From contig JAGHAF010000030.1 in assembly GCA_021161675.1 (NCBI GenBank), positions 9,376-73,375 on the forward strand: DNA of 64,000 bases, in the 5' to 3' direction. Shown piece by piece: positions 28,276 to 38,883 of this stretch. This DNA comes from Planctomycetota bacterium. Lineage in GTDB: Bacteria > Planctomycetota > Brocadiia > SM23-32. The notes beneath the pieces are model-generated. The model was not told the origin of the DNA and did no database searches. It was given only the letters and a program-made list of their open reading frames with translations. A program made the position numbers and the translations under genes. Every line of letters starts with the position of its first letter. The first letter of the stretch is position 1.

Positions 28276-31200
28276 ATGCCAAAAAGAACCGACATCGAGA
28301 AGATACTCCTCATCGGCTCCGGACCGATCGTGATCGGCCAGGCCTGCGAATTCGATTATTCCGGCGCGCAAGCATGTAAGGCGCTCATCGAAGAGGGCTA
28401 CCAGGTCACGCTGCTCAACTCGAACCCGGCCACCATCATGACCGATCCGGTCATGGCCCATCGGACCTACATCGAACCGATAACGGCCGGCGTGCTGGCC
28501 AAAGTCATCGAGCGGGAGCGCCCGGACGCGCTGCTGGCTACGCTGGGCGGTCAGACCGCGCTGAACGTGGCCGTCCAGGCCTCTGAGGCGGGCGTGCTCG
28601 ACCGGTTCGCCGTGGAGATGATCGGCGCCAACGAGACGGCGATCAAATGCGCGGAGGACAGGCGTAAGTTCCGCGCGGCCCTTGAGGAAATCGGCGTGGA
28701 GATGCCCCGCAGCCGGGCCGTTTACTCGGTCCAAGAGGCGCGCGAGGCGGCCAGGGAGATCGGCTTTCCGCTGATAATACGCCCCAGCTTCACACTGGGC
28801 GGCACGGGGGCGTCCGTAGCGTATAACGTGGGGGAGTTTCAGACCGCCGCCGCGCGGGGCCTCGACGCGAGCATGATAGGCGAGGCGCTCATCGAGGAAT
28901 CCGTGATCGGCTGGAAGGAATACGAACTGGAGGTCATGCGCGACCGCAAGGATAACGTCGTCATAATTTGCTCGATCGAGAACATCGACGCCATGGGCGT
29001 CCACACGGGCGATTCGGTCACCGTAGCGCCGGCTCAGACGCTGACGGACAAACAGTACCAGAACATGCGCGACGCCGCCCTAGCCATTATCCGCAAGGTG
29101 GGCGTCGAGACGGGCGGCTCCAACATCCAGTTCGCCGTGCACCCGGACACGGGGCGGATGGTCGCCATTGAGATGAACCCCCGCGTGTCCCGCTCCTCGG
29201 CGCTCGCCAGCAAGGCCACCGGCTTCCCCATCGCCAAGATAGCCGCCAAGCTGGCGGTCGGCTACACACTCGACGAAATCCCCAACGACATCACCAGGGA
29301 GACGCCTGCCTGCTTTGAGCCCACTATTGACTACTGCGTCGTGAAGCTTCCGCGCTTCGCCTTCGAGAAGTTCCCCGACGCCGACGACACCCTCACTGTG
29401 TCCATGAAATCGGTCGGCGAAGCAATGGCGATCGGCCGCACCTTCAAGGAAGCTCTCCAGAAGGGCCTGCGGTCCCTTGAGACCGGCCTGAGCGGCCTGG
29501 ACAGGAAATGCGAAGCCAAAGTTGTCCCGGAGGACCTCCTCCCCATGCTCGCGCGACCGAACCCCTTGCGCCTGTTCTACGTCAAGCACGCCCTGAAGAA
29601 CAACATGCCCATCCAGCAGATAGCCGATCTGACACGCATTGACCCCTGGTTCCTTAACAACATCCGCCAGATCGTAGAGATGGAGCGGGAGCTCGGGTCC
29701 CTGAGCCCGGAGGAGTTACTCTCTGAGGAGTTCCTGCGAAAGGCAAAACGGACGGGCTTCTCCGACCGGCAGATCGCCGACCTCGGCGGCATGGACCCGG
29801 CGAAAGTCCGCCGCCGCAGAACCGACGTGGCAGTGCGCCCCGTCTACAGACTCGTTGACACCTGCGCAGCCGAGTTCGAGGCTTACACACCTTACTTCTA
29901 CTCCACCTACGAGTCCGAAGACGAAGCCCGGCCCGGCGCCAGAGAACGAGTCGTCATCATCGGCAGCGGCCCCAACCGAATCGGACAGGGCATCGAATTC
30001 GACTACTGCTGCGTCCACGCCGCGCTGGCCGCCCGCGAGGACGGTTACGATAGCATAATGATCAACTCCAACCCCGAAACGGTCTCCACGGACTACGACA
30101 CGGCCAACCGGCTCTACTTCGAGCCGCTCACCGCTGAGGACGTGCTGAACATCGTCGAGGCCGAGAAGCCCTACGGCGTGATACTCCAGTTCGGCGGCCA
30201 GACTCCGCTGAACATCTCAGCCGAGCTCGAGGCCAACGGCGTCCCTCTGCTGGGCACAAGCCCCCGGAGCATAGACCTGGCCGAAGACCGCGAACATTTC
30301 AGCCAGATTCTGCGCGAACTGGGCCTCAAACAGGCCCCCAGCGGCATTGCCACCACCTATGAAGCAGCATTGCAGCTTGCCAGGCGGATAGGCTACCCAG
30401 TGCTTGTGCGCCCCAGCTACGTATTGGGCGGACGGGCAATGGAGATCGTCTACGACGCCCAGGAACTGAAGCGCTTCATGCGCGAGGCCCTGAAGGCGTC
30501 CCCTGAGGGGTCCGTTCTGGTGGACAAGTTCCTGGAAGACGCCATCGAGGTTGACGTGGACGCCATAAGCGACGGACATCGCACCGTAATAGGCGCCATA
30601 ATGGAGCACATCGAGCAGGCAGGCGTTCACTCCGGCGACAGCGCGTGCGTCATCCCGCCGCAGACGCTCTCGCGACAGTTGCAGGACGAGATCGCCCGCC
30701 AGACAAGAGAACTTTCCAGCGCTCTCGATATCGTCGGCCTCATGAACATCCAGTTCGCCGTTCAGCAGGGCGAGGTATACGTCCTGGAGCTGAACCCGCG
30801 CGCCTCACGCACCATCCCATTCGTCTCGAAGGCCACCGGCGTGCCGCTGGCCAGGCTGGCGACAAAGGTGATGCTCGGCCGTTCCCTGGAGGAACTCGGA
30901 CTGACCGAGGAAGTCCGAATCAAGCACGTAGCCGTCAAGGAGGCCGTGTTCCCGTTCACCCGCTTCACCGGTATAGACACGCAGCTCGGCCCCGAGATGA
31001 AGTCCACGGGCGAGGTGATGGGCATCGCGGACGACTTTGGCATGGCGTTCGCCAAGGCACAGCTCGCGGCCGGACAGGACCTGTTGAAGGAAGGAGCGGT
31101 TTTCTTCAGCCTGTGCCAGCGGGATAAGACGTCTCTGTCCGCCGGTGTGGCTCGAAAGTTCTCGCAGATGGGGTTCGAGCTGGTAGCCACCGAGGGCACC

Positions 31201-31530
31201 GCCGCATTCTTGCGCGCTAGCGACATCCCCTGCCAACGCATAAACAAGGTGCGCGAAGGCAGGCCCCACGTGGTGGACGCAATGATCAACGGCGAGATCG
31301 GCCTGGTGATAAACACCCCAAGCGGCAAGAACCCGCGCCAGGACGAGATCGCCATACGCAGCACTGCCTGGGCGCGCAGGGTTCCCATCATCACCACCAT
31401 CCAGGGCGCGGTGGCCGCAGCGGAGGCCATCGCGGGGCTCAAGGAGCACTACCTCACCGTCAAGACCCTCCAGGAGTACATCATCGAAACCCACGGTGAA
31501 GCGCCGACGCCGCACGGAGCTCGTGTGTGA
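28276..31530 (+). CDS. carB: carbamoyl-phosphate synthase large subunit
   Basis: 1084 aa, duplicated ATP-grasp halves, MGS-like C-terminus. Confidence 0.95.
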
Positions 31531-31554
31531 CTTTCGCTATCCCCCTCCCCCCCG

Positions 31555-31583
31555 TTGACAGAATTGCTCCGATCCCATAGAAT
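31555..31583 (+). promoter_or_regulatory. candidate sigma-70 promoter TTGACA-17 nt-TAGAAT upstream of the arsR operon, followed by an AT-rich candidate operator (ATATCTAAATATATGAATA)
   Basis: Near-consensus hexamers at 31555..31560 and 31578..31583 with 17-nt spacing, about 100 nt before the arsR ATG, in a GC-rich genome. Confidence 0.45.
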
Positions 31584-31681
31584 ATCTAAATATATGAATA
31601 CTTCGATGATTCAAGAAACGCCCGCACTACGAAGCGCATTGCTGCCGTGAGCGCGAACACGCTTATGATGGGAGGCTTTGT

Positions 31682-31972
31682 ATGAGCGATGTTGAGCAAT
31701 ACTCCACAGTGTTCAAGGCGTTGTCGGCGCCCGTTCGGCTGCGCCTGCTGGGTATCCTGCCTGGAGACGACCGGGAAGGCGCCCTCTCCGTCTGCAATCT
31801 GGCCGAGAAACTGGGCATCTCCCAGCCTTGCCTGTCACACCACCTTAACATCCTGAGGTGCGCCGGCCTGGTGCGTTTCAAAAAGGACGGTTGCAGCACC
31901 TTCTATTTCGTAGACCGCAGCTACGTGGAGAGGCAGCTCGCCGGTTTCCGCAAGTGGATGGTGGAGCGATGA
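31682..31972 (+). CDS. ArsR/SmtB-family transcriptional regulator
   Basis: 96 aa, winged HTH (LSAPVRLRLLGIL...CNLAEKLGISQPCLSHHLNILRCAGLV). Confidence 0.75.
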   Translation: MSDVEQYSTVFKALSAPVRLRLLGILPGDDREGALSVCNLAEKLGISQPCLSHHLNILRCAGLVRFKKDGCSTFYFVDRSYVERQLAGFRKWMVER

Positions 31973-32925
31973 AGATCGCATTGATTTACGACGAGCCCTC
32001 CCCGCAGGGAGAAGGCGCCTGGGTGGAAGCGGAGTACGAGTCCCCCCGCACTATTGAGGCGCTGCTGGCGGCCATCGGCGCACACTGTGAGGAGGCGGTG
32101 CGCGTCCCGTTCGGTCCAGACCTGATCGAAAGGCTGCGGGCGGAAGGGCCGGACCTGGCTTTCAATATCGTCGAAGGCCGCGACGGGCCTTCGCGAGAGT
32201 CCATCGCGCCTGCCGTACTGGACTTTCTCGGGATACCCTACACAGGTTCCGACGGGGTTGCTCTCGGGATTTCGCTGAATAAGGCGCTGACCAAGCGCCT
32301 GGCATCCCAGCTCGGAATCCCGACTCCGGCGTTCTTTCTGGTTCACTCCGCACAGGAGGCCGTAGAGCGGGCCGCCGGGCTTGAATATCCAGTCCTGGTC
32401 AAGCCCAATTTCGGTGGTTCGAGCGTCGGGATTGGGCCGGAGAGCATCGTGCGATGCCCGGAGGCCCTTGCGCAAGTCGTCGAACGCGAACTCGCCCGTT
32501 ATAGTCAGCCCTGTCTGGTAGAGGCCTACGTAGAAGGCGAAGACCTTACGCTGGGCCTGCTCGGAAGCGATGATCTGGAAGCGCTGCCTGCCGGTAAGGT
32601 GATAACGCCCGGGGGAATCTACTCGGAGCTGGCGAAGAAGACGCACGAACGAGAAATCCTCTGTCCCTACGACGTCCCCCAGGAAGTCGAGGGAAAGCTG
32701 AGAGACTGGTCAGTGAAAATATTCCGGGCGATCGGCGCCCGCGACTTCGCCCGCGCGGACTACGTGCTGGGCGCCGATGGTCAACCGTGGTTTCTGGAGA
32801 TCAACCCCCTGCCGGGCCTGAGCCCCTACTATGGAGTGTTGCCCGTACTGGCCCAGGCCGCGGGATACACTCATTCGCAACTGATTGGGAGGATAATCAG
32901 CATTGTCCAGCAACGCCTTGCTTGA
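31969..32925 (+). CDS. ATP-grasp ligase of the D-alanine--D-alanine ligase family
   Basis: Start MKIALIYDE overlaps the arsR stop (ATGA). Ddl-like N-domain, ATP-grasp central domain (YPVLVKPNFGGSSVGI, FLEINPLPGL). Confidence 0.7.
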   Translation: MKIALIYDEPSPQGEGAWVEAEYESPRTIEALLAAIGAHCEEAVRVPFGPDLIERLRAEGPDLAFNIVEGRDGPSRESIAPAVLDFLGIPYTGSDGVALGISLNKALTKRLASQLGIPTPAFFLVHSAQEAVERAAGLEYPVLVKPNFGGSSVGIGPESIVRCPEALAQVVERELARYSQPCLVEAYVEGEDLTLGLLGSDDLEALPAGKVITPGGIYSELAKKTHEREILCPYDVPQEVEGKLRDWSVKIFRAIGARDFARADYVLGADGQPWFLEINPLPGLSPYYGVLPVLAQAAGYTHSQLIGRIISIVQQRLA

Positions 32926-34000
32926 CGGAGATAAGAGAACGGCCGCCGACTGGCGAGAAGAGCTGCAGAGCAGTGTTCGCACCCTTGAGCAGCTTGAGAA
33001 GTTCATCAACCTAACGCCGGAGGAACGCGAGGGGATAGAACAATGCCAGGGCGTCTTCAACTGGGGCATCAGCCCATACTATGCTTCGCTGATGGACCGG
33101 GACGACCCGGGCTGTCCCATTCGGCGTCAGGTGGTGCCGCGGATCGAGGAACTGCACGACCCGATCGGCGTCTGGGACCCGCTCAGAGAGCAGGATCACT
33201 CGCCTGTCGAGAACCTCATCCATGTCTATGAGGATCGGGTGGCCTTCTGCGTCAGCTCCCTCTGTCCGACGTTCTGCAGATTCTGTCTGCGCAAGCGGAT
33301 GGTGGACACGCTGGGCTGTCCGATCTCCGAAGACAACTTCGAAGAGGGCCTGGATTACATCCGTCGCACGCCGGCCATCCGCGACGTCCTGCTGACCGGT
33401 GGGGACCCTCTCCTGATGGAGGACGAACGGATCGAACGGATCGTAGCCAGGGTCCACGAGATACCTCACGTGGAACTGGTGCGCATCGGCAGCCGCTCCC
33501 CCTGCACGCTGCCCTCGCGCATAACGGAGGAACTGTGCGAGCGGCTTGCGCGACATCAGCCGTTCTGGATCAACACGCATTTCAATCACCCGAAGGAACT
33601 CACGCCGCAGGCCGTGGCCGCCTGCGGGCGGATCGTGGACCACGGCATCCCGTTGGGCAACCAGACCGTGCTGCTGAAGGGTATCAACGACGACGCGCGT
33701 ATCCTCAAGGAACTGGGTGAGCGCCTCGTCGCGGCGCGCGTGAGGCCGTACTACGTCTACCAGTGCCAGGTCCTTCAAGGAACGCATCACTTCCGCGTGC
33801 AAATCGAGGCAGGAGTGCGGATGATGCGAGACCTGCGCGGCAGGACGAGCGGCTTCGCAATACCACAGTACGTGCTTGACACCCCCTACGGGAAGGTCCC
33901 GCTCAATTATCAGTACATACGCGGCCGGGAAGGCAACGAGGTCATCCTGGAAACATTCTCGGGAAAGATATGGCGCGAACCGAACCCACAGTCATCGTGA
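32903..34000 (+). CDS. KamA-family radical SAM aminomutase (lysine 2,3-aminomutase-like)
   Basis: CPTFCRFCLRKRM (CxxxCxxC with the aminomutase context) plus PLP-binding region. 365 aa. Confidence 0.8.
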   Translation: MSSNALLDGDKRTAADWREELQSSVRTLEQLEKFINLTPEEREGIEQCQGVFNWGISPYYASLMDRDDPGCPIRRQVVPRIEELHDPIGVWDPLREQDHSPVENLIHVYEDRVAFCVSSLCPTFCRFCLRKRMVDTLGCPISEDNFEEGLDYIRRTPAIRDVLLTGGDPLLMEDERIERIVARVHEIPHVELVRIGSRSPCTLPSRITEELCERLARHQPFWINTHFNHPKELTPQAVAACGRIVDHGIPLGNQTVLLKGINDDARILKELGERLVAARVRPYYVYQCQVLQGTHHFRVQIEAGVRMMRDLRGRTSGFAIPQYVLDTPYGKVPLNYQYIRGREGNEVILETFSGKIWREPNPQSS

Positions 34001-35808
34001 TATGCCTGGGCAACCCGGGCGAGCGATTCGCCGGCAGCCGCCACAACGCCGGCTTTATTCTCGCCGATCACCTCGCCCAACGGAGGCAGTTCGGGCCCTT
34101 TCAGCCACTGGAAGGGACCGAGGCACTCGCCGCCGAAGGGACGCTTGCCAACATGCGCACCCTGCTGGTCAAGCCGACCACGGCAATGAATGACTGCGGC
34201 CGCGTAGTGTCCCCCCTCGCAAGGGACTACTCGTTCGACGAACACCTCTGGGTCGTCATCCATGACGACCTGGACCTGCCGCTGGGCAGCGTCAAAGGAC
34301 GTCAGAAAGGCGGCCATGGAGGCCATAACGGGGTGCGCTCTCTCCTGGAGGCCGCCGGCCGGCGGGACCTGGCGCGCGTGAAGCTGGGCGTGAGTTCTCG
34401 GCGGAAGGCCGACTACGAATCGGTAGCCGATTTCCTGCTCTCGAAATTCCACCCGGAGGAACTCCGCAGCCTACAGGAGGTCTTCCCTGACGCGGAGAAG
34501 GTATTGACGGATCAGATAAACTCCTTCGTGGTCGCCGCCACCGGACGAGACCGCCTCCAGGAGACTGCCCGGCGCTATCGCAAGGGCGCACTGGAAGAGG
34601 CGCGCACGGCCCTCGACGGGATTCCTGCGAGCTCACCATATCCCGTTATACTGCGTGGGCGCCAGATGCGCCGCGCCTTCGACGTCGTCACGGCGCTGGC
34701 AAAGCTGCTGAGAAAAGCCAGAGCGCTCGCCGCCAAGAACGGAGGGTTCAGGCGGCGCCTGGTCGAGTTTATACCGGACGAGCTGCGTCCGTTGCTGCCA
34801 CCATGCAACGGCTCGCAGCGGCTGTTCTTCGCAGCAGACCTCCACATTCTCGGGCAACGCTTGAAGGTCATAGAGCTTAACTGCGCCGTCGGCTACGGCC
34901 ATTATGCGGCGCTGGCTGACGAGGCGCTGTTCCCCATCGTGCGCCGGATAGCTGGCGAAGCTGAGCGGCCCAATGAATGGAACTTTGCCGCCTTCCTTCA
35001 CCGCCATGGGCTCAGGCCGTTGCACGAGTCCGGCGCCGGGGGCATTGCGTTCCTGCGTGGGTTCGGCGGCGAGGACATGTTCAACGTGGACGAGCTGGAG
35101 GGCGTGGCGAGGCGTATCGAGCGAGATACGGGCCTGCACGTGCCGCTGTGTCACGAGCGCGACCTGGCGCTGCGTAAAGACGGCCTCTACCTGGGCGGAA
35201 CCGGCCGAGTGGACCTGCTCTACGTGGAGGAGAACCTCTCGGAGTGGCCGGGCCCGGCCGACGACTCGCCGGTCCGGCGGGCCGTTGAGAGCGGCCTCGT
35301 GAGGACGTTTCCTGAGTTGGAGATGTTCCTTTACACCAGCAAGGGTTTTCTGTCTCTGCTCGCCGACCCCGAAGTGCAGGACATGCTTGGGCCCGACGAG
35401 GCGGAGCAGAAGGTTCTGCGCGAGAACATCCTCTGGTCGCACCCCCTTGACCGACACATCGAGCCAGCGGCCTACTACATGCTGGAGCAGGGGCTGCGAG
35501 TAGTGGTCAAGGACGCCCTGGGCGGGGGCGGCCGCGGGGTGACGGTGCTGCGGCCGGGCTCCTCCTCGCAACAGGCCGGGCACATCCTTCGCCGCCGTAT
35601 GGTGGAGGGTCGAAGCATCGTGCAGGGCTACTTCGAGGCCGGACGCTGGGCGGAAGATGACGACCTCAGGTTCGACGTTCGCGTGCTGTGCGCCGCCCAC
35701 GAGGGCGACATCACGATAGGACCGGTCTACGGGCGCATCTTCCGAGGGGCCAAGCTCAGCCTCTCCGGGCCCGACGCCGGCGTGGCGCCGGTTTATGCGC
35801 TCAGATAG
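33970..35808 (+). CDS. peptidyl-tRNA hydrolase (Pth) domain fused to a ~420-aa C-terminal domain of unknown function with ATP-grasp-like features
   Basis: N-terminal ~190 aa match the Pth family (TVIVICLGNPGERFAGSRHNAGF...HDDLDLPLGSVK...GGHGGHNGVRS). The C-terminal 420 aa lack Pth similarity and carry Gly-rich KDALGGGGRGVTV and FDVRVL motifs. One uninterrupted 612-codon frame. Confidence 0.6.
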   Translation: MARTEPTVIVICLGNPGERFAGSRHNAGFILADHLAQRRQFGPFQPLEGTEALAAEGTLANMRTLLVKPTTAMNDCGRVVSPLARDYSFDEHLWVVIHDDLDLPLGSVKGRQKGGHGGHNGVRSLLEAAGRRDLARVKLGVSSRRKADYESVADFLLSKFHPEELRSLQEVFPDAEKVLTDQINSFVVAATGRDRLQETARRYRKGALEEARTALDGIPASSPYPVILRGRQMRRAFDVVTALAKLLRKARALAAKNGGFRRRLVEFIPDELRPLLPPCNGSQRLFFAADLHILGQRLKVIELNCAVGYGHYAALADEALFPIVRRIAGEAERPNEWNFAAFLHRHGLRPLHESGAGGIAFLRGFGGEDMFNVDELEGVARRIERDTGLHVPLCHERDLALRKDGLYLGGTGRVDLLYVEENLSEWPGPADDSPVRRAVESGLVRTFPELEMFLYTSKGFLSLLADPEVQDMLGPDEAEQKVLRENILWSHPLDRHIEPAAYYMLEQGLRVVVKDALGGGGRGVTVLRPGSSSQQAGHILRRRMVEGRSIVQGYFEAGRWAEDDDLRFDVRVLCAAHEGDITIGPVYGRIFRGAKLSLSGPDAGVAPVYALR

Positions 35809-35834
35809 CCAGACAGCGGAACTCAAGGTGCGCT

Positions 35835-36443
35835 CTACTTGGGGGCCGCCTCCCTCGCTTCAAGCACGGAGACGGCCGTCGCAGCGAAAAGGTTCGCAGC
35901 AAACGCCGGCGCCGGCTTGTAGGCGGGCGTAAAATAGCGACTGTTCACGATGCGCATCCCGTTCTCCCGGCAGAAGCGCCGGAAATCCTTAACCGTCAGC
36001 ACACGAAGGTTCGGCGTGTCGTGCCACCTGTAAGGCAACGTCTTCGTGATCGGGGCGCGGCCCCCGAATAGCAGTTGCAGGCGGATGCGCCAGTGTCCGA
36101 AGTTCGGATAACTGATAATCGAACGCCGGCCCACGCGCAGCATCTCACGCGCCACTTGCGCCGGATTCAGAGCTTGCTGGAGGGTCTGGCTCAGGATAAC
36201 GCAGTCGAAGCTTCCGTCCCGGAACATGCTCATCCCTTCCAGCATGTCCCCGTGGTAGACGGGCACGCCCCGGCGTATGCACTCCCTGACCGCCTGCTCA
36301 TTGATCTCTATGCCACGCGCCTCAACCCCCTTGTCGCGGATTAGACGTTGCAGTAAGGCGCCGTCGCCGCAGCCGAGGTCGAGGACCCTGGCGCCTTGCG
36401 GGATATGCGCCTCGATGTATTCGTAGTCAATGCGAACGCCCAT
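35835..36443 (-). CDS. metW: methionine biosynthesis protein MetW (class I SAM-dependent methyltransferase fold)
   Basis: VLDLGCGDGALL motif, ~200 aa, immediately downstream of metX. Confidence 0.75.
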   Translation of the reverse strand: MGVRIDYEYIEAHIPQGARVLDLGCGDGALLQRLIRDKGVEARGIEINEQAVRECIRRGVPVYHGDMLEGMSMFRDGSFDCVILSQTLQQALNPAQVAREMLRVGRRSIISYPNFGHWRIRLQLLFGGRAPITKTLPYRWHDTPNLRVLTVKDFRRFCRENGMRIVNSRYFTPAYKPAPAFAANLFAATAVSVLEAREAAPK

Positions 36444-37618
36444 TAGCCGGTCGCCTCCTGTGCGTTCGCAAGAAAACTACGAATCACGTCCTCAAGCCCG
36501 GGATTCTCGAGCAAGAAAATATCGTGCCCGTATGGCGACTCCAGCTCGCAGAAGCTGACACGGACGCCATTTGCCTGCAGGGCGCGCACCAACTCGCGGG
36601 ATTGGTAAGTCGGAAATAGCCAGTCGCCGGTGAAGGAGACCACCAGGAAACGGCTCTTTACGCCGCGGAAGGCTTCGACGGCGCCGCCCAAATCGCTCGC
36701 CAGGTCGAAGTAATCCATCGCCTTTGTGATGTAGAGGTAGCTGTTGGCGTCGAAGCGTCCTACGAACTTGCCCCCCTGGTGGCGAAGGTAGCTTTCGACC
36801 TGAAAATCCGGCGGCCCGAAATCGTATCCAACGTCCTCCCTGTCCTGGAGGCGGCGACCGAACTTCTCGTGCATGGACTGATCGCTCAGGTAAGTGATAT
36901 GCCCGATCATGCGTGCCACGGCGAGCCCGCGTGCGGGCGGATTGCCACTGTAGTAGTCGCCGCCGTTCCAGTTCGGGTCGGCGTAGATAGCCTGCCGGCC
37001 TACTTCGTCGAAGGCGATCGCCTGGGCGCTGAGCCTGGTGGCGGTGGCAATTGGCACGACGCAGCGCACGATGTCCGGATAGTCGATCGCCCAGCGAAGC
37101 GCCTGCATCCCGCCGAATGAGCCGCCGATCACGCATAAGAGCTGGTCCAGCTCGAGATGCCGGCTCACGAGCGCGTGCTGCACCTTCACCATGTCTTCCA
37201 CCGTGACCATGGGAAAGTCCAGGCCGAAAGGCTCTCCCGTTTTGGGATTGACGGAAGACGGGCCGGTGCTCCCCTTACAGGCGCCGATGATGTTCGAGCA
37301 GATCACGAAGTACTTGCGGGTGTCTATGGGCTTGCCCGGGCCGACCATGATGTCCCACCAGCCGGGCTCCGGATCGTCTGGCGAGTACCTGCCGCACACG
37401 TGCGCGTCGCCTGAAAGCGCGTGGCATATCAAGATGGCGTTGTCGCGCTCGGGCGAGAGCGTCCCGCAGGTCTCGTAGGCCACGGTGATCGGGCCGAGCT
37501 TCGCGCCGCAACGCAGGGGCAGTTCGTTCGGCGGCTCCGCGAACTGCCAGTGCTTGGTCTCAACTATGTCGAACGATTGCTCGTCGTTCATTGCCGCTAC
37601 CCGCTCAGAGCCTGGCAC
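36443..37618 (-). CDS. metX: homoserine O-acetyltransferase MetX
   Basis: alpha/beta hydrolase with [10 protein letters not shown] nucleophile elbow, 391 aa. Confidence 0.85.
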
Positions 37619-38883
37619 AGGTCTTCTTTGATGTCTTCGATGTCCTCGATCCCGACCGAAAGGCGGATGAAGTCCTCGGTAACGCCCGTCTGCAACAGTT
37701 CCTCTGCGCTGAGTTGCTGGTGCGTCGTGCTGGCGGGATGAATGGCGAGCGTGCGGGCGTCGCCGATGTTGGCCAGGTGGCTTATCAGCCGGAGTCCGTC
37801 AATGAACTTCTTGCCGGCCTCCCGGCCGCCCTTGACTCCGAACCCGACCATGCCGCCGAAGCCGCCAGAGAGATAGCGGGTCGCCAGTTCATACGCCGGG
37901 TGATCCGGCAGGCCGGGGTAGTTCACCCAGCTCACCTTGGGATGCTCCTGCAGGAACCGGACGACTTCGAGAGCGTTCTCACAGTGTCTCGGCATGCGCA
38001 CGTGCAGCGTCTCGATGCCCTGGAGGATGAGAAAAGCGTTCATCGGGCTGATGCAGCCGCCCAGGTCCCGCAGCATCCGCACGCGGAGCCGGGCGACGTA
38101 CGCCGCTTCGCCGAAGGTTTCGAGGAAGCGCAGCCCATGGTAGGCGGGATCGGGCTCCAGCATCTCCGGGAACCGTCCGCTTCCGGCCCAATCGAACCCG
38201 CCTCCCCCGGCAATGAGTCCGCCGATGCTGTTGCCATGACCGCCCAGGTACTTGGTAAGCGAGTGCACGACAATGTCCGCCCCGTGCTCCAGAGGGCGGC
38301 ACAGATAGGGCGTCGCCATCGTATTGTCCACCATCACTGGTATTCCCTGTGCGTGTGCGACCTGGCAAATGGCCTGGAAATCAGGCACCGTCAGGCGCGG
38401 GTTCCCGATCGTCTCCAGAAAGATGAGCCTGGTGCGATCGGTGATGGCCGCCTCGAACTCGCGAGGGTCGTCCGTGTCGGTGAAGACGACGTCAATACCC
38501 ATCTTCTGCGGGAAGGTCTGGCTGAAGAGTGTGTACGTGCCTCCGTAGAGGCCGCTGGAGGAGACGATCTGGTCGCCCTTTCCAAGGATGGCCAGGCAGG
38601 CCGCGTTGGTTGCGCTCATCCCGCTGGAGAACGCCACGGCGCCGACTGCGCCCTCGAGCATCGCCACCCGCTTCTCCAGAACGTCCGTGGTGGGATTCAT
38701 GATGCGGGTGTAGATGTAGCCCGGCTCTTCCAGAGCGAAGAGCCGGGCGGCGTGGTCGCTGTTCTCGAAGACGTAGGAGGTGGTCTGGTAAATGGGGACG
38801 GCACGGGCATGTGTGTCGCTGTCCGGCACGTGCCCCCCGAGCAAGCAGGCAGTAGCGAACTTCAGTTCAGGCTTCTCGTTCAT
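37597..38883 (-). CDS. metY: O-acetylhomoserine aminocarboxypropyltransferase (sulfhydrylase) MetY
   Basis: PLP Cys/Met-metabolism family, 428 aa, [10 protein letters not shown] lysine motif. Confidence 0.85.

Follow-up and report, generated by a model that had tools for sequence, protein, structure and literature searches.

A Pth1-type peptidyl-tRNA hydrolase domain fused to a circularly permuted ATP-grasp ligase domain in a conserved four-gene cassette of a Planctomycetota lineage

The open reading frame MCD6415530.1 encodes a genuine bifunctional protein, in which a helical linker joins a Pth1 (peptidyl-tRNA hydrolase) domain to a C-terminal, circularly permuted ATP-grasp ligase domain (Table 1). 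In the window, which is the whole 64-kb stretch of DNA analyzed here, the fusion gene closes a translationally coupled, self-contained cassette in which the genes for an ArsR-type regulator, a Ddl-like ligase and a KamA-family aminomutase precede it in this order, and this cassette is a conserved feature of the SM23_32-type lineage of Brocadiia (Planctomycetota). As the best explanation of the whole, to which we give a probability of roughly 0.35, we propose by analogy with known enzymes that the cassette serves a beta-amino-acid amide or peptide pathway in which Pth would be functionally coupled to the second ligation.

Table 1. Genes of the cassette, the gene next to it and the segments of the fusion protein, with positions in the window.
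Feature	Position	Strand	Remarks
ArsR/SmtB-type winged-helix regulator, 96 aa	31682..31972	+	first cassette gene
Ddl-like classical ATP-grasp ligase, 318 aa	31969..32925	+	Pfam Dala_Dala_lig_C, E 3.7e-36
KamA-family radical-SAM amino acid 2,3-aminomutase, 365 aa	32903..34000	+	
Pth::ligase fusion ORF, 612 aa, MCD6415530.1	33970..35808	+	fourth and last cassette gene
Pth1 domain, residues 9-185	33994..34524	+	
Helical linker, residues 186-221	34525..34632	+	secondary structure, AF2 model
Circularly permuted ATP-grasp acid-amine ligase domain, residues 222-612 (GspS/YgiC/GSH-synthetase-like)	34633..35805	+	
metW	35835..36443	-	convergent with the fusion gene

The ORF listing gives the fusion gene as one unbroken frame with an ATG start. 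An earlier note on this DNA, made from its letters alone, had claimed that the frame runs past residue ~190 without a stop, and this is borne out by 25 more full-length homologues of 607-625 aa, which match 98-100% of the query at 54-69% identity, come from independent NCBI, JGI, ENA and Logan assemblies and have the same architecture. Because all 25 of these proteins align across the Pth/ligase junction, the fusion is not a sequencing frameshift. The fusion is encoded in 16 species-representative MAGs of the SM23_32 / 'Ca. Brocadiia' lineage, and 13 intact genomic copies have it in one continuous frame. The dN/dS values were 0.19-0.29 for the Pth segment, 0.14-0.26 for the ligase segment and 0.28-0.59, the highest of the three, for the linker; the Pth and ligase halves are under similar purifying selection. 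Isolated, fragmentary cases appear to be split, P0031/L006 lying at a contig end and L009 having a gap of 2 nt, but the joining of a pth gene and a ligase gene by a sequencing or assembly frameshift is ruled out for all practical purposes by the 26 independent full-length proteins, the 13 genomic copies and the selection that acts across the junction.

The AlphaFold2 model of the 612-aa protein was confident throughout (mean pLDDT 89.6, pTM 0.73), and in this model the linker, with a pLDDT of 76-92, prolongs the last helix of the Pth domain, so that a long helix (H172-206) results. The N-terminal MARTEP of the fusion is conserved in the clade; since the overlapping 3' end of the KamA-family gene constrains the N-terminus, it is uninformative on the history of the domains.

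Residues 9-184 matched Pfam PF01195 Pept_tRNA_hydro (E 1.2e-44, 152.8 bits; cut-off 27), and the domain passed the NCBIfam equivalog TIGR00447 'pth' (152.4 bits; cut-off 100) and had the Pth1 fold (TM 0.86 in the comparison with canonical bacterial Pth1). N15 of GNPG, H25 of RHN, N74 of MN, D99 of HDDLD and N120 of GHNG, as well as R111 and K138, were invariant in 25 sequences, in agreement with the earlier claim that the N-terminus carries all the hallmark motifs of Pth. When mapped to the E. coli numbering by motif rather than by a computed alignment to 2pth, the first five would correspond to Asn10, His20, Asn68, Asp93 and Asn114, the catalytic and substrate-binding residues of E. coli Pth, while R111 and K138 would be the counterparts of Lys105 and Arg133, which clamp the 5' phosphate of tRNA. 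Judging from these residues, the Pth1 domain is canonical and apparently catalytically competent. As an esterase, Pth1 removes acyl groups linked to ribose; it hydrolyzes N-acyl-aminoacyl-tRNA and spares free aminoacyl-tRNA, and we know of no amidase activity of Pth1.

The canonical bacterial Pth1 enzymes (E. coli 2pth, M. tuberculosis 2z2i) share the full-length domain and all hallmark motifs with the fusion, but they are free-standing proteins of ~190 aa, whereas in the fusion the domain takes up the N-terminal third of 612 residues and belongs to a cassette that looks biosynthetic. CRS2, the chloroplast group II intron splicing factor and Pth1 homologue that was among the sequence and structure matches, illustrates that the Pth1 fold can be recruited beyond bulk peptidyl-tRNA recycling; CRS2, however, is a single-domain protein acting via protein-RNA complexes, whereas the Pth domain of the fusion retains every catalytic motif. 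In the one example examined, the canonical Planctomycetota pth sits in prs-rplY-pth-rpsF-ssb-rplI; the product of this gene shares only ~42% identity with the fused Pth, against 50-71% with its own relatives. Searches by tblastn with the canonical Planctomycetota Pth, L25, S6, SSB, L9 and Prs as queries found no second pth besides the fused copies in the window and 27 loci, and neither the Pth-domain and canonical-Pth searches nor the cluster look-up returned a stand-alone Pth that could be traced to an assembly with the fusion.

The assignment of the ligase domain needed fold and profile-profile comparison. Residues 200-612 gave only sub-threshold ATP-grasp matches against Pfam, NCBIfam and PDB sequences: the query had no match at E<=0.1 to GSP_synth (PF03738), CP_ATPgrasp_1 (PF04174) or CP_ATPgrasp_2 (PF14403) and did not reach their gathering cut-offs, and the best sub-threshold Pfam match (CP_ATPgrasp_1, E 6.7e-4) occurred in 2 of 11 clade members. 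Because it scores below the gathering cut-offs, the domain is a superfamily relative that stands outside the curated Pfam families. By hhalign, it aligned over 376 columns with a set of 13 proteins, 9 of which match CP_ATPgrasp_2, 6 CP_ATPgrasp_1 and 3 GSP_synth, at a probability of 99.9% (E 2.6e-34), and its fold matched solved members of the permuted ATP-grasp branch (GspS / YgiC / eukaryotic GSH synthetase / CP_ATPgrasp). In the permuted ATP-grasp order the Lys and the Gly-rich loop come after the Mg-binding D...ExN motif, and the fusion has D290, E302 and N304 upstream of K514, G518-G523, Q552, D569, R571 and R589. Residues D290, E302, N304, K514, G518, G520, G521, R522, D569 and R589, which we assume to bind Mg and ATP by analogy with ATP-grasp enzymes, were invariant down to 20% identity. 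The motifs quoted in the earlier note were found (LGGGGRGV at residues 517-524, FDVRVL at 568-573 and VYGRI at 586-590), and its suggestion of an ATP-grasp-like fold proved correct, the branch being the circularly permuted one. Taken together, these comparisons show, by analogy with characterized enzymes, a circularly permuted ATP-grasp acid-amine ligase with an intact predicted Mg-ATP site, and the domain forms a rare family of its own, most of whose nearest relatives carry Pth.

Among the known enzymes, the CP_ATPgrasp_1/2 families (e.g. PDB 3n6x) are homologous along the whole domain and have the same permuted motif order, although the query falls below their Pfam cut-offs. Of the YgiC / YjfC peptide-spermidine ligases (PDB 7uka), YgiC is a free-standing protein of ~370 aa without Pth, with 13% identity. 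In E. coli Gss/GspSA (PDB 2io7) and the trypanothione synthetase-amidase (2vpm), the ligase identity is ~12-14% and the genomic setting differs from the one here, with its aminomutase and Ddl-like ligase. Moreover, the hydrolase of GspSA is a CHAP cysteine amidase, whereas the N-terminus of the fusion has the Pth1 fold and no CHAP amidase.

The conserved cassette is the main clue to the function of the fusion. Its stop overlapping the start of the Ddl-like gene (ATGA), the ArsR-type gene lies directly upstream of that gene, at 56-63% identity, in every locus with enough flank, and its orthologues in L001, L003 and L006 were called HTH_20/HTH_5. A CVC(D/E)L motif was present in 8 of 14 loci (SVCNL here), and the Cys residues in SQPCLSHHL and DGCS were invariant. 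The length of the Ddl-like protein is counted from a conserved MKIALIYDE start, the longest ORF starting at 31858; the gene is 58-69% identical across cassettes, and the protein passed only for the generic Dala_Dala_lig_C domain and was below all NCBIfam D-Ala-D-Ala ligase cut-offs (best NF002378, 169.5 bits; cut-off 243). The aminomutase gene, which shares its last 31 nt with the start of the fusion gene, is the most conserved of the cassette (77-83% identity). Its product passed the KamA family TIGR00238 (312.8 bits; cut-off 199), and the Lys, Arg and Glu 2,3-aminomutase equivalogs gave ~400-410 bits, all below their cut-offs (AblA 410; cut-off 525). When compared with lysine 2,3-aminomutase 2A5H (E 6.7e-108), it has Gln at the position of Asp293 and keeps Asp330, the two residues of C. 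subterminale LAM that bind the epsilon-ammonium group; the enzyme thus has neither the equivalog score nor both Asp residues of a lysine-specific aminomutase.

The cassette is conserved while its flanks differ, it has no exporter gene, and within the clade the fusion always goes together with the 2,3-aminomutase. No tRNA genes or RNA elements, including T-boxes, were found in 31000..36500 or in the window. As for anti-phage defense, the three cassette enzymes had no PADLOC match and the regulator gave only generic wHTH matches. The earlier interpretation, which overall is partly supported and in which the coupling of release from tRNA to ligation is a hypothesis, had overlooked this four-gene cassette with its second ATP-grasp ligase and its radical-SAM 2,3-aminomutase.

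A profile search of 1.84e9 representatives brought up distant relatives of the fusion. The nearest ligase relatives outside the clade were mostly Pth fusions (P0153, P0154, P0156, P0161, P0168 and P0253), and outside the clade at least six 50%-identity clusters, all very divergent, have this Pth plus ligase architecture. The distant Pth domains retain the His20, Asn68 and Asp93 positions, with the Asn10 and Asn114 positions altered, and from sequence they look specialized, not housekeeping. In all five distant loci examined, the gene directly upstream of the fusion looks like a second ATP-grasp-type ligase. This partner matches Pfam ATP-grasp_3 in L026 and L027, and its ATP-grasp reading in L025, L004 and L005 comes from short motifs only: the partners in L004 and L005 had no Pfam, PDB or hhalign assignment, and the partner in L025 had no Pfam match and only a sub-threshold hhalign match over an ExN-type motif. 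A hydrolase gene is nearby in L025, L026, L027 and L005, an arginyl-tRNA synthetase gene follows the fusion in one distant locus only, and the distant Pth::ligase fusions are without an aminomutase neighbor. The pairing of Pth with this ligase family is not an isolated case.

One clade member, L023, has no Pth domain. Its KamA, Ddl-like and ArsR genes are as similar to those of the other members as those are to each other, and it branches among the other members in the Ddl-like and ArsR trees. Its ligase, on the other hand, is the most divergent (mean identity 0.53 vs 0.60-0.65) and has lost the otherwise invariant Arg of the G-loop to a replacement. This pattern is the one expected of co-adapted domains after the secondary loss of one of them. 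A ligase core as the ancestral state, joined late by Pth, was considered for L023, and the trees and identities favor secondary loss.

For the proposed pathway, the product would be a small intracellular amide or peptide containing a beta-amino acid. The aminomutase would supply the beta-amino acid, and two successive ATP-dependent ligations, each via an acyl-phosphate intermediate, would build the product. In the most likely form of the coupling, the ligase domain of the fusion would activate a carboxylate and join it to the alpha-amino group of an aminoacyl-tRNA, which would give an N-acyl-aminoacyl-tRNA, the substrate class of Pth1; the fused Pth would then free the product and recycle the tRNA. 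That the ligase uses aminoacyl-tRNA as amine donor, with the fused Pth1 as a built-in release activity hydrolyzing N-acyl-aminoacyl-tRNA, is a tentative reading by analogy, to which we would give a minority chance. It would amount to the three-step chemistry of PEARLs, built from unrelated folds and with a dedicated release domain. PEARLs phosphorylate a carboxylate at an ATP-grasp-like site and condense it with aminoacyl-tRNA, after which the tRNA ester is hydrolyzed (PMC11962472). The likeness is one of working alike only, in that the two domains of the fusion would supply the same steps; no sequence or fold relationship between the LanB-like PEARLs and the fusion was detected. Furthermore, PEARLs lack a Pth domain and their substrates are ribosomal scaffold peptides, and for the fusion ligase the use of aminoacyl-tRNA is a proposal.

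The proposed explanation, coupling of the two activities included, is supported by the conservation of the fusion under selection, the conserved cassette with its differing flanks, the recurrence of Pth fusions among the distant relatives, the divergence of the Pth-less L023 ligase, the chemical precedent of the PEARLs and the arginyl-tRNA synthetase gene behind one distant fusion. In addition, the fourth position behind an ArsR-type repressor would be an odd place for an essential housekeeping gene. Against coupling, the Pth is fully canonical with an equivalog score, which fits a housekeeping Pth equally well; the existence of the Pth-less L023 cassette means that the ligase may not strictly need Pth; the adjacency to the arginyl-tRNA synthetase gene is limited to a single locus, and no tRNA gene, T-box or RNA element is near the cassette; and, to our knowledge, every characterized enzyme of the GspS / YgiC / GSH-synthetase superfamily works on a free amine rather than on aminoacyl-tRNA.

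A doubtful but serious alternative is that the cell's essential, housekeeping Pth was relocated and fused by chance to an unrelated small-molecule ligase, with no chemical coupling and at most co-expression. The equivalog cut-off of TIGR00447 is passed, the hallmark motifs and the basic tRNA-clamp positions are invariant, no second Pth was found within the window or the fetched flanks, and the cassette exists without Pth in L023, all of which would suit such a fusion. Chance is hard to square, however, with at least six very divergent 50%-identity clusters having derived Pth motifs, and the position of the gene as the last of an operon headed by an ArsR-type regulator, the ~42% identity to the canonical Planctomycetota Pth that was examined and the faster evolution of the ligase after the loss of Pth in L023 also speak against it.

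It is unlikely that the two domains are an antagonistic pair like GspSA, in which the Pth-fold domain would undo or edit the ligase product and set its steady-state level, its substrate being an ester or amide other than a tRNA ester. Pth1 acts as an esterase on ribose-linked acyl groups and is not known to have amidase activity, and the invariant basic R111 and K138 argue that tRNA is still the substrate. We consider it similarly improbable that the hydrolase acts first, with Pth freeing a peptide or N-acyl-amino acid from its tRNA ester and the ligase re-activating the carboxylate to cap it with an amine. Candidates for the amine would be the beta-amino acid, the dipeptide of the Ddl-like enzyme or a polyamine, and the last step would resemble the YgiC/YjfC peptide-spermidine ligases; yet an activated ester would be hydrolyzed only for the acid to be re-activated with ATP, which is a waste of energy, and the usual specificity of ATP-grasp ligases sits badly with the heterogeneity of drop-off peptides. 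Detoxification, in which cells that produce a beta-amino acid would risk its mischarging onto tRNA and Pth would deacylate the beta-aminoacyl-tRNA (without an alpha-ammonium group) and return the beta-amino acid to the ligase, would fit the strict link of the clade fusion to the aminomutase, but it is very unlikely given the distant fusions without an aminomutase neighbor, and we know of no precedent for it.

The usual view of Pth1 is that of a housekeeping enzyme with one domain and one purpose, and of an antibiotic target. A search of the available literature library for Pth combined in a relevant way with ATP-grasp, glutathionylspermidine or aminomutase found nothing, one for the specificity residues of lysine 2,3-aminomutase gave no usable result, and we found no description of a Pth::amide-ligase fusion. 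In the fusion, it is stably joined to an amide ligase of the GspS/YgiC type, and several divergent clusters have the same arrangement, with a candidate ATP-grasp partner ligase encoded upstream in each, which points to an unrecognized connection of tRNA-ester chemistry with the synthesis of small molecules by ATP-grasp enzymes. Should the Pth be no more than the housekeeping enzyme, an unusual gene fusion and a new family of circularly permuted ATP-grasp ligases remain. If the ligase does use aminoacyl-tRNA, PEARL-type tRNA-dependent amide synthesis would have been invented a second time, independently, and Pth1 would have its first known biosynthetic, non-housekeeping role; the fusion would then define a conserved module of two ATP-grasp ligases plus Pth in several divergent lineages. 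If the coupling is real, four genes with one bifunctional enzyme and a natural Pth-less control would make a compact, testable system, which could yield a new tRNA-dependent amide-forming biocatalyst and a new beta-amino-acid metabolite of an uncultured Planctomycetota lineage.

The earlier note had described a peptidyl-tRNA hydrolase (Pth) domain running without a stop into a second domain, here called Pth::ligase. Residues 9-184 of the encoded protein (MCD6415530.1, recorded as 'aminoacyl-tRNA hydrolase [Planctomycetes bacterium]') gave matches to Pept_tRNA_hydro in Pfam (E 1.2e-44) and to TIGR00447, the 'pth' equivalog of NCBIfam (152.4 bits vs a cut-off of 100). When 5.8 billion proteins were searched, 25 more full-length ones were recovered (607-625 aa, 54-69% identity over 98-100% of the query) from independent NCBI, JGI, ENA and Logan assemblies, and the domain junction aligned across them without disruption. 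Pairwise dN/dS was 0.19-0.29 in the Pth part, 0.14-0.26 in the ligase part and 0.28-0.59 in the linker, and the low values in the first two indicate that both halves are kept by selection. Taken together, the homologues, the junction alignment and the dN/dS values demonstrate that the fusion is genuine. When one genome per GTDB species was scanned, the ligase domain was found in 16 MAGs, all labeled Planctomycetes SM23_32, 'Candidatus Brocadiaceae' or 'Candidatus Brocadiia', with the continuous frame intact in 13. Since these 13 copies and the homologues from independent assemblies continue across the junction, a sequencing frameshift there is dismissed.

The apparent splits in two copies are best explained as assembly problems. 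One (P0031/L006) adjoins a contig end. In the other (L009, 1421..1949, LJUE01000129.1, Planctomycetes SM23_32), the Pth domain is broken by a gap of 2 nt close to locus position 1536, which probably reflects faulty assembly and not a pseudogene, because the near-identical P0005 from ENA is unbroken at that point. The conserved N-terminus of the fusion (MARTEP/MARTQ) is encoded in 33970..34000, a 31-nt overlap with the 3' end of the KamA gene (...WREPNP...), so its conservation reflects dual coding and not a functional N-terminal motif. A 397-aa antisense ORF inside the fusion gene (34633..35826, minus strand) was not taken for a gene, as it is an expected by-product of coding DNA of about 65% G+C.

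Features of the fusion gene, its cassette and the flanking genes
Feature	Coordinates	Strand	Remarks
carB (carbamoyl-phosphate synthase large subunit)	within 28276..31530		upstream; 1084-aa ORF, read from translation
ArsR/SmtB-type regulator	31682..31972
Ddl-like classical ATP-grasp ligase	31969..32925		below every true D-Ala-D-Ala ligase cut-off
KamA-family radical-SAM 2,3-aminomutase	32903..34000
Pth::ligase ORF	33970..35808	+	ATG start, uninterrupted, 612 aa
metW	within 35835..38883	-	downstream; Pfam and NCBIfam matches
metX-like homoserine acetyltransferase, then O-acetylhomoserine sulfhydrylase	within 35835..38883	-	read from translations

Sequence-family searches of the C-terminal domain gave sub-threshold ATP-grasp matches only. 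In the AlphaFold2 model, the domain matches a group of acid-amine ligases of the circularly permuted ATP-grasp type, and human glutathione synthetase was found independently by Foldseek (E 2.4e-15). Its profile aligned over 376 columns (hhalign probability 99.9%, E 2.6e-34) with that of stand-alone ~450-aa proteins bearing CP_ATPgrasp_1/2 and GSP_synth signatures. In PMC12568646, YgiC and YjfC are classed as peptide-spermidine ligases and Cp1B as an acid-amino acid ligase. The motifs GGGGRGV, FDVRVL and VYGRI, quoted in the earlier note, were located at residues 518-524, 568-573 and 586-590. The motif order is permuted (D290...E302-x-N304, then K514, the Gly-rich loop 518-524, Q552, D569-x-R571 and R589), and D290, E302, N304, K514, G518, G520, G521, R522, D569 and R589 are invariant even at 20-26% identity. 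The structure match, the hhalign probability and the permuted order bear out the ATP-grasp-like fold proposed before, and the '420-aa domain of unknown function' is predicted to be an intact ATP-dependent amide ligase. Since the domain reached no Pfam cut-off and its profile matched, at E<=1e-3, no more than 126 proteins among 1.84 billion representatives, it is, judged from sequence, a new and rare family inside a known superfamily.

The fusion gene is the last of a tightly packed cassette with overlapping reading frames. The four genes (ArsR-type regulator, Ddl-like ligase, KamA-family aminomutase and Pth::ligase) keep their order in all related loci whose flanks are long enough; the surrounding genes vary. 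In the window the cassette is flanked by genes of ordinary metabolism, and other genomes have different flanks. No exporter gene was found in any flank inspected, which speaks for a product kept inside the cell and against a secreted antibiotic. For the aminomutase, the Lys, Arg and Glu 2,3-aminomutase equivalogs gave about equal scores, all below cut-off. Of the two Asp residues that bind the epsilon-ammonium group in lysine 2,3-aminomutase, Asp293 is replaced by Gln and Asp330 is retained; the Gln and the scores below cut-off suggest that the enzyme probably belongs to a distinct substrate class. At 8 of the 14 related loci the regulator carries the ArsR-like motif CVC(D/E)L, for which the window copy has SVCNL, and two further Cys, in SQPCLSHHL and DGCS, are invariant. 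These cysteines suggest a switch that responds to metalloids, metals or thiols.

One locus, L023 (7455..11233, CAWDVO010000015.1), has the full four-gene cassette with a ligase lacking the Pth domain: the protein starts MARTEPHVSG... and runs directly into the ligase domain. Its KamA, Ddl-like and ArsR proteins resemble those of the other members as closely as these resemble one another, and the Ddl-like and ArsR trees place L023 among them. The L023 ligase has diverged the most (mean identity 0.53 vs 0.60-0.65), and the Arg of the otherwise invariant GGGGRGV is replaced with Asp (GGGGDGV). Since the outgroups are Pth-fused, the simplest history is a secondary loss of Pth, after which the ligase changed faster or decayed. 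This pattern fits co-adapted Pth and ligase domains and is no proof of a Pth-independent ligase function. A cytochrome bd oxidase subunit I gene comes after the L023 ligase; because the two genes adjoin, P0151 (554 aa), a called product containing the ligase C-terminal part and cytochrome bd subunit I, is probably a gene-calling or assembly fusion.

The nearest ligase-domain relatives outside the clade are mostly Pth fusions as well (P0153, P0154, P0156, P0161, P0168 and P0253; 615-821 aa). Their Pth domains are more derived, with Ser at the Asn10 position (E. coli numbering) and Lys or Arg at the Asn114 position in most; the His20, Asn68 and Asp93 positions are retained. In all five distant loci examined, the directly upstream gene looks like a second ATP-grasp-type ligase: it has a Pfam ATP-grasp_3 match in L026 and L027, an ExN-type motif without Pfam match in L025, and in L004 and L005 it encodes a conserved 412-433-aa protein without Pfam match whose motifs are putatively ATP-grasp-like. 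A hydrolase gene lies near the fusion in four loci, namely Peptidase_S51 (L025, L026), HAD (L027) and AstE/AspA-like (L005). The Peptidase_S51 family includes cyanophycinase and dipeptidase E. It appears that the recurring unit is 'ATP-grasp ligase + Pth::permuted ATP-grasp ligase', to which lineages add accessories of their own, the aminomutase in the case of the clade studied. L025 (3206..7313), L026 (3..4685) and a 47-kb JGI contig have an ATP-grasp-type ligase (putative in L025), then the fusion, then Peptidase_S51; on the JGI contig, EF-G-like and EF-Tu genes lie 1-9 kb downstream. At L005 (5780..11755), the AstE/AspA-like deacylase and the 433-aa protein are upstream of the fusion gene, and an arginyl-tRNA synthetase is directly downstream. 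P0030 (646 aa, from a Logan assembly, outside the window) combines ligase and Pth in another way: a Mur-ligase (PF08245/PF02875) forms its N-terminal part and a Pth1 domain its C-terminal part.

The analysis establishes what the two catalytic domains are and that both are intact, that the cassette is conserved, and that Pth and this kind of ligase are repeatedly associated. Most likely, the cassette would build a small beta-amino-acid-containing amide via two acyl-phosphate ligations. As the favored reading of the whole pathway (probability about 0.35), the second ligation would be tRNA-coupled: the ligase would join an activated carboxylate to the alpha-amine of an aminoacyl-tRNA, and the resulting N-acyl-aminoacyl-tRNA would be a Pth1 substrate, free aminoacyl-tRNA being spared, so that the fused Pth would free the product and make the tRNA available again. 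PEARL enzymes carry out the same step sequence at an ATP-grasp-like site (PMC11962472). The likeness lies in carboxylate activation, condensation with aminoacyl-tRNA and release, which for Pth::ligase are proposed only.

It is less likely, though still a serious contender, that a housekeeping Pth is merely fused to the ligase. The fused domain is perfectly canonical, and no second pth was found in the 64-kb window or within stretches of at most about 10 kb either side of the related genes. On the other hand, the Pth domains of the distant fusions are derived, the gene is placed behind an ArsR-type regulator, and the fused domain is only ~42% similar to the one canonical Planctomycetota Pth examined. 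That Pth is encoded in prs-rplY-pth-rpsF-ssb-rplI, and its own relatives share 50-71% identity with it. It is rather unlikely that the two domains form a GspSA-like synthetase/hydrolase pair with a non-tRNA product as its target, and equally so that hydrolysis comes first, with the freed carboxylate then capped as in YgiC. Deacylation of a mischarged beta-aminoacyl-tRNA is highly improbable.

Both domains are from known superfamilies, and hydrolase-ligase fusions are already known in the same ligase superfamily (GspSA and trypanothione synthetase-amidase). In the literature searched, we found no description of Pth fused to a GspS/ATP-grasp-type ligase or associated with an aminomutase cassette. 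If the tRNA dependence is true, Pth::ligase would be a plausible route to something categorically new.
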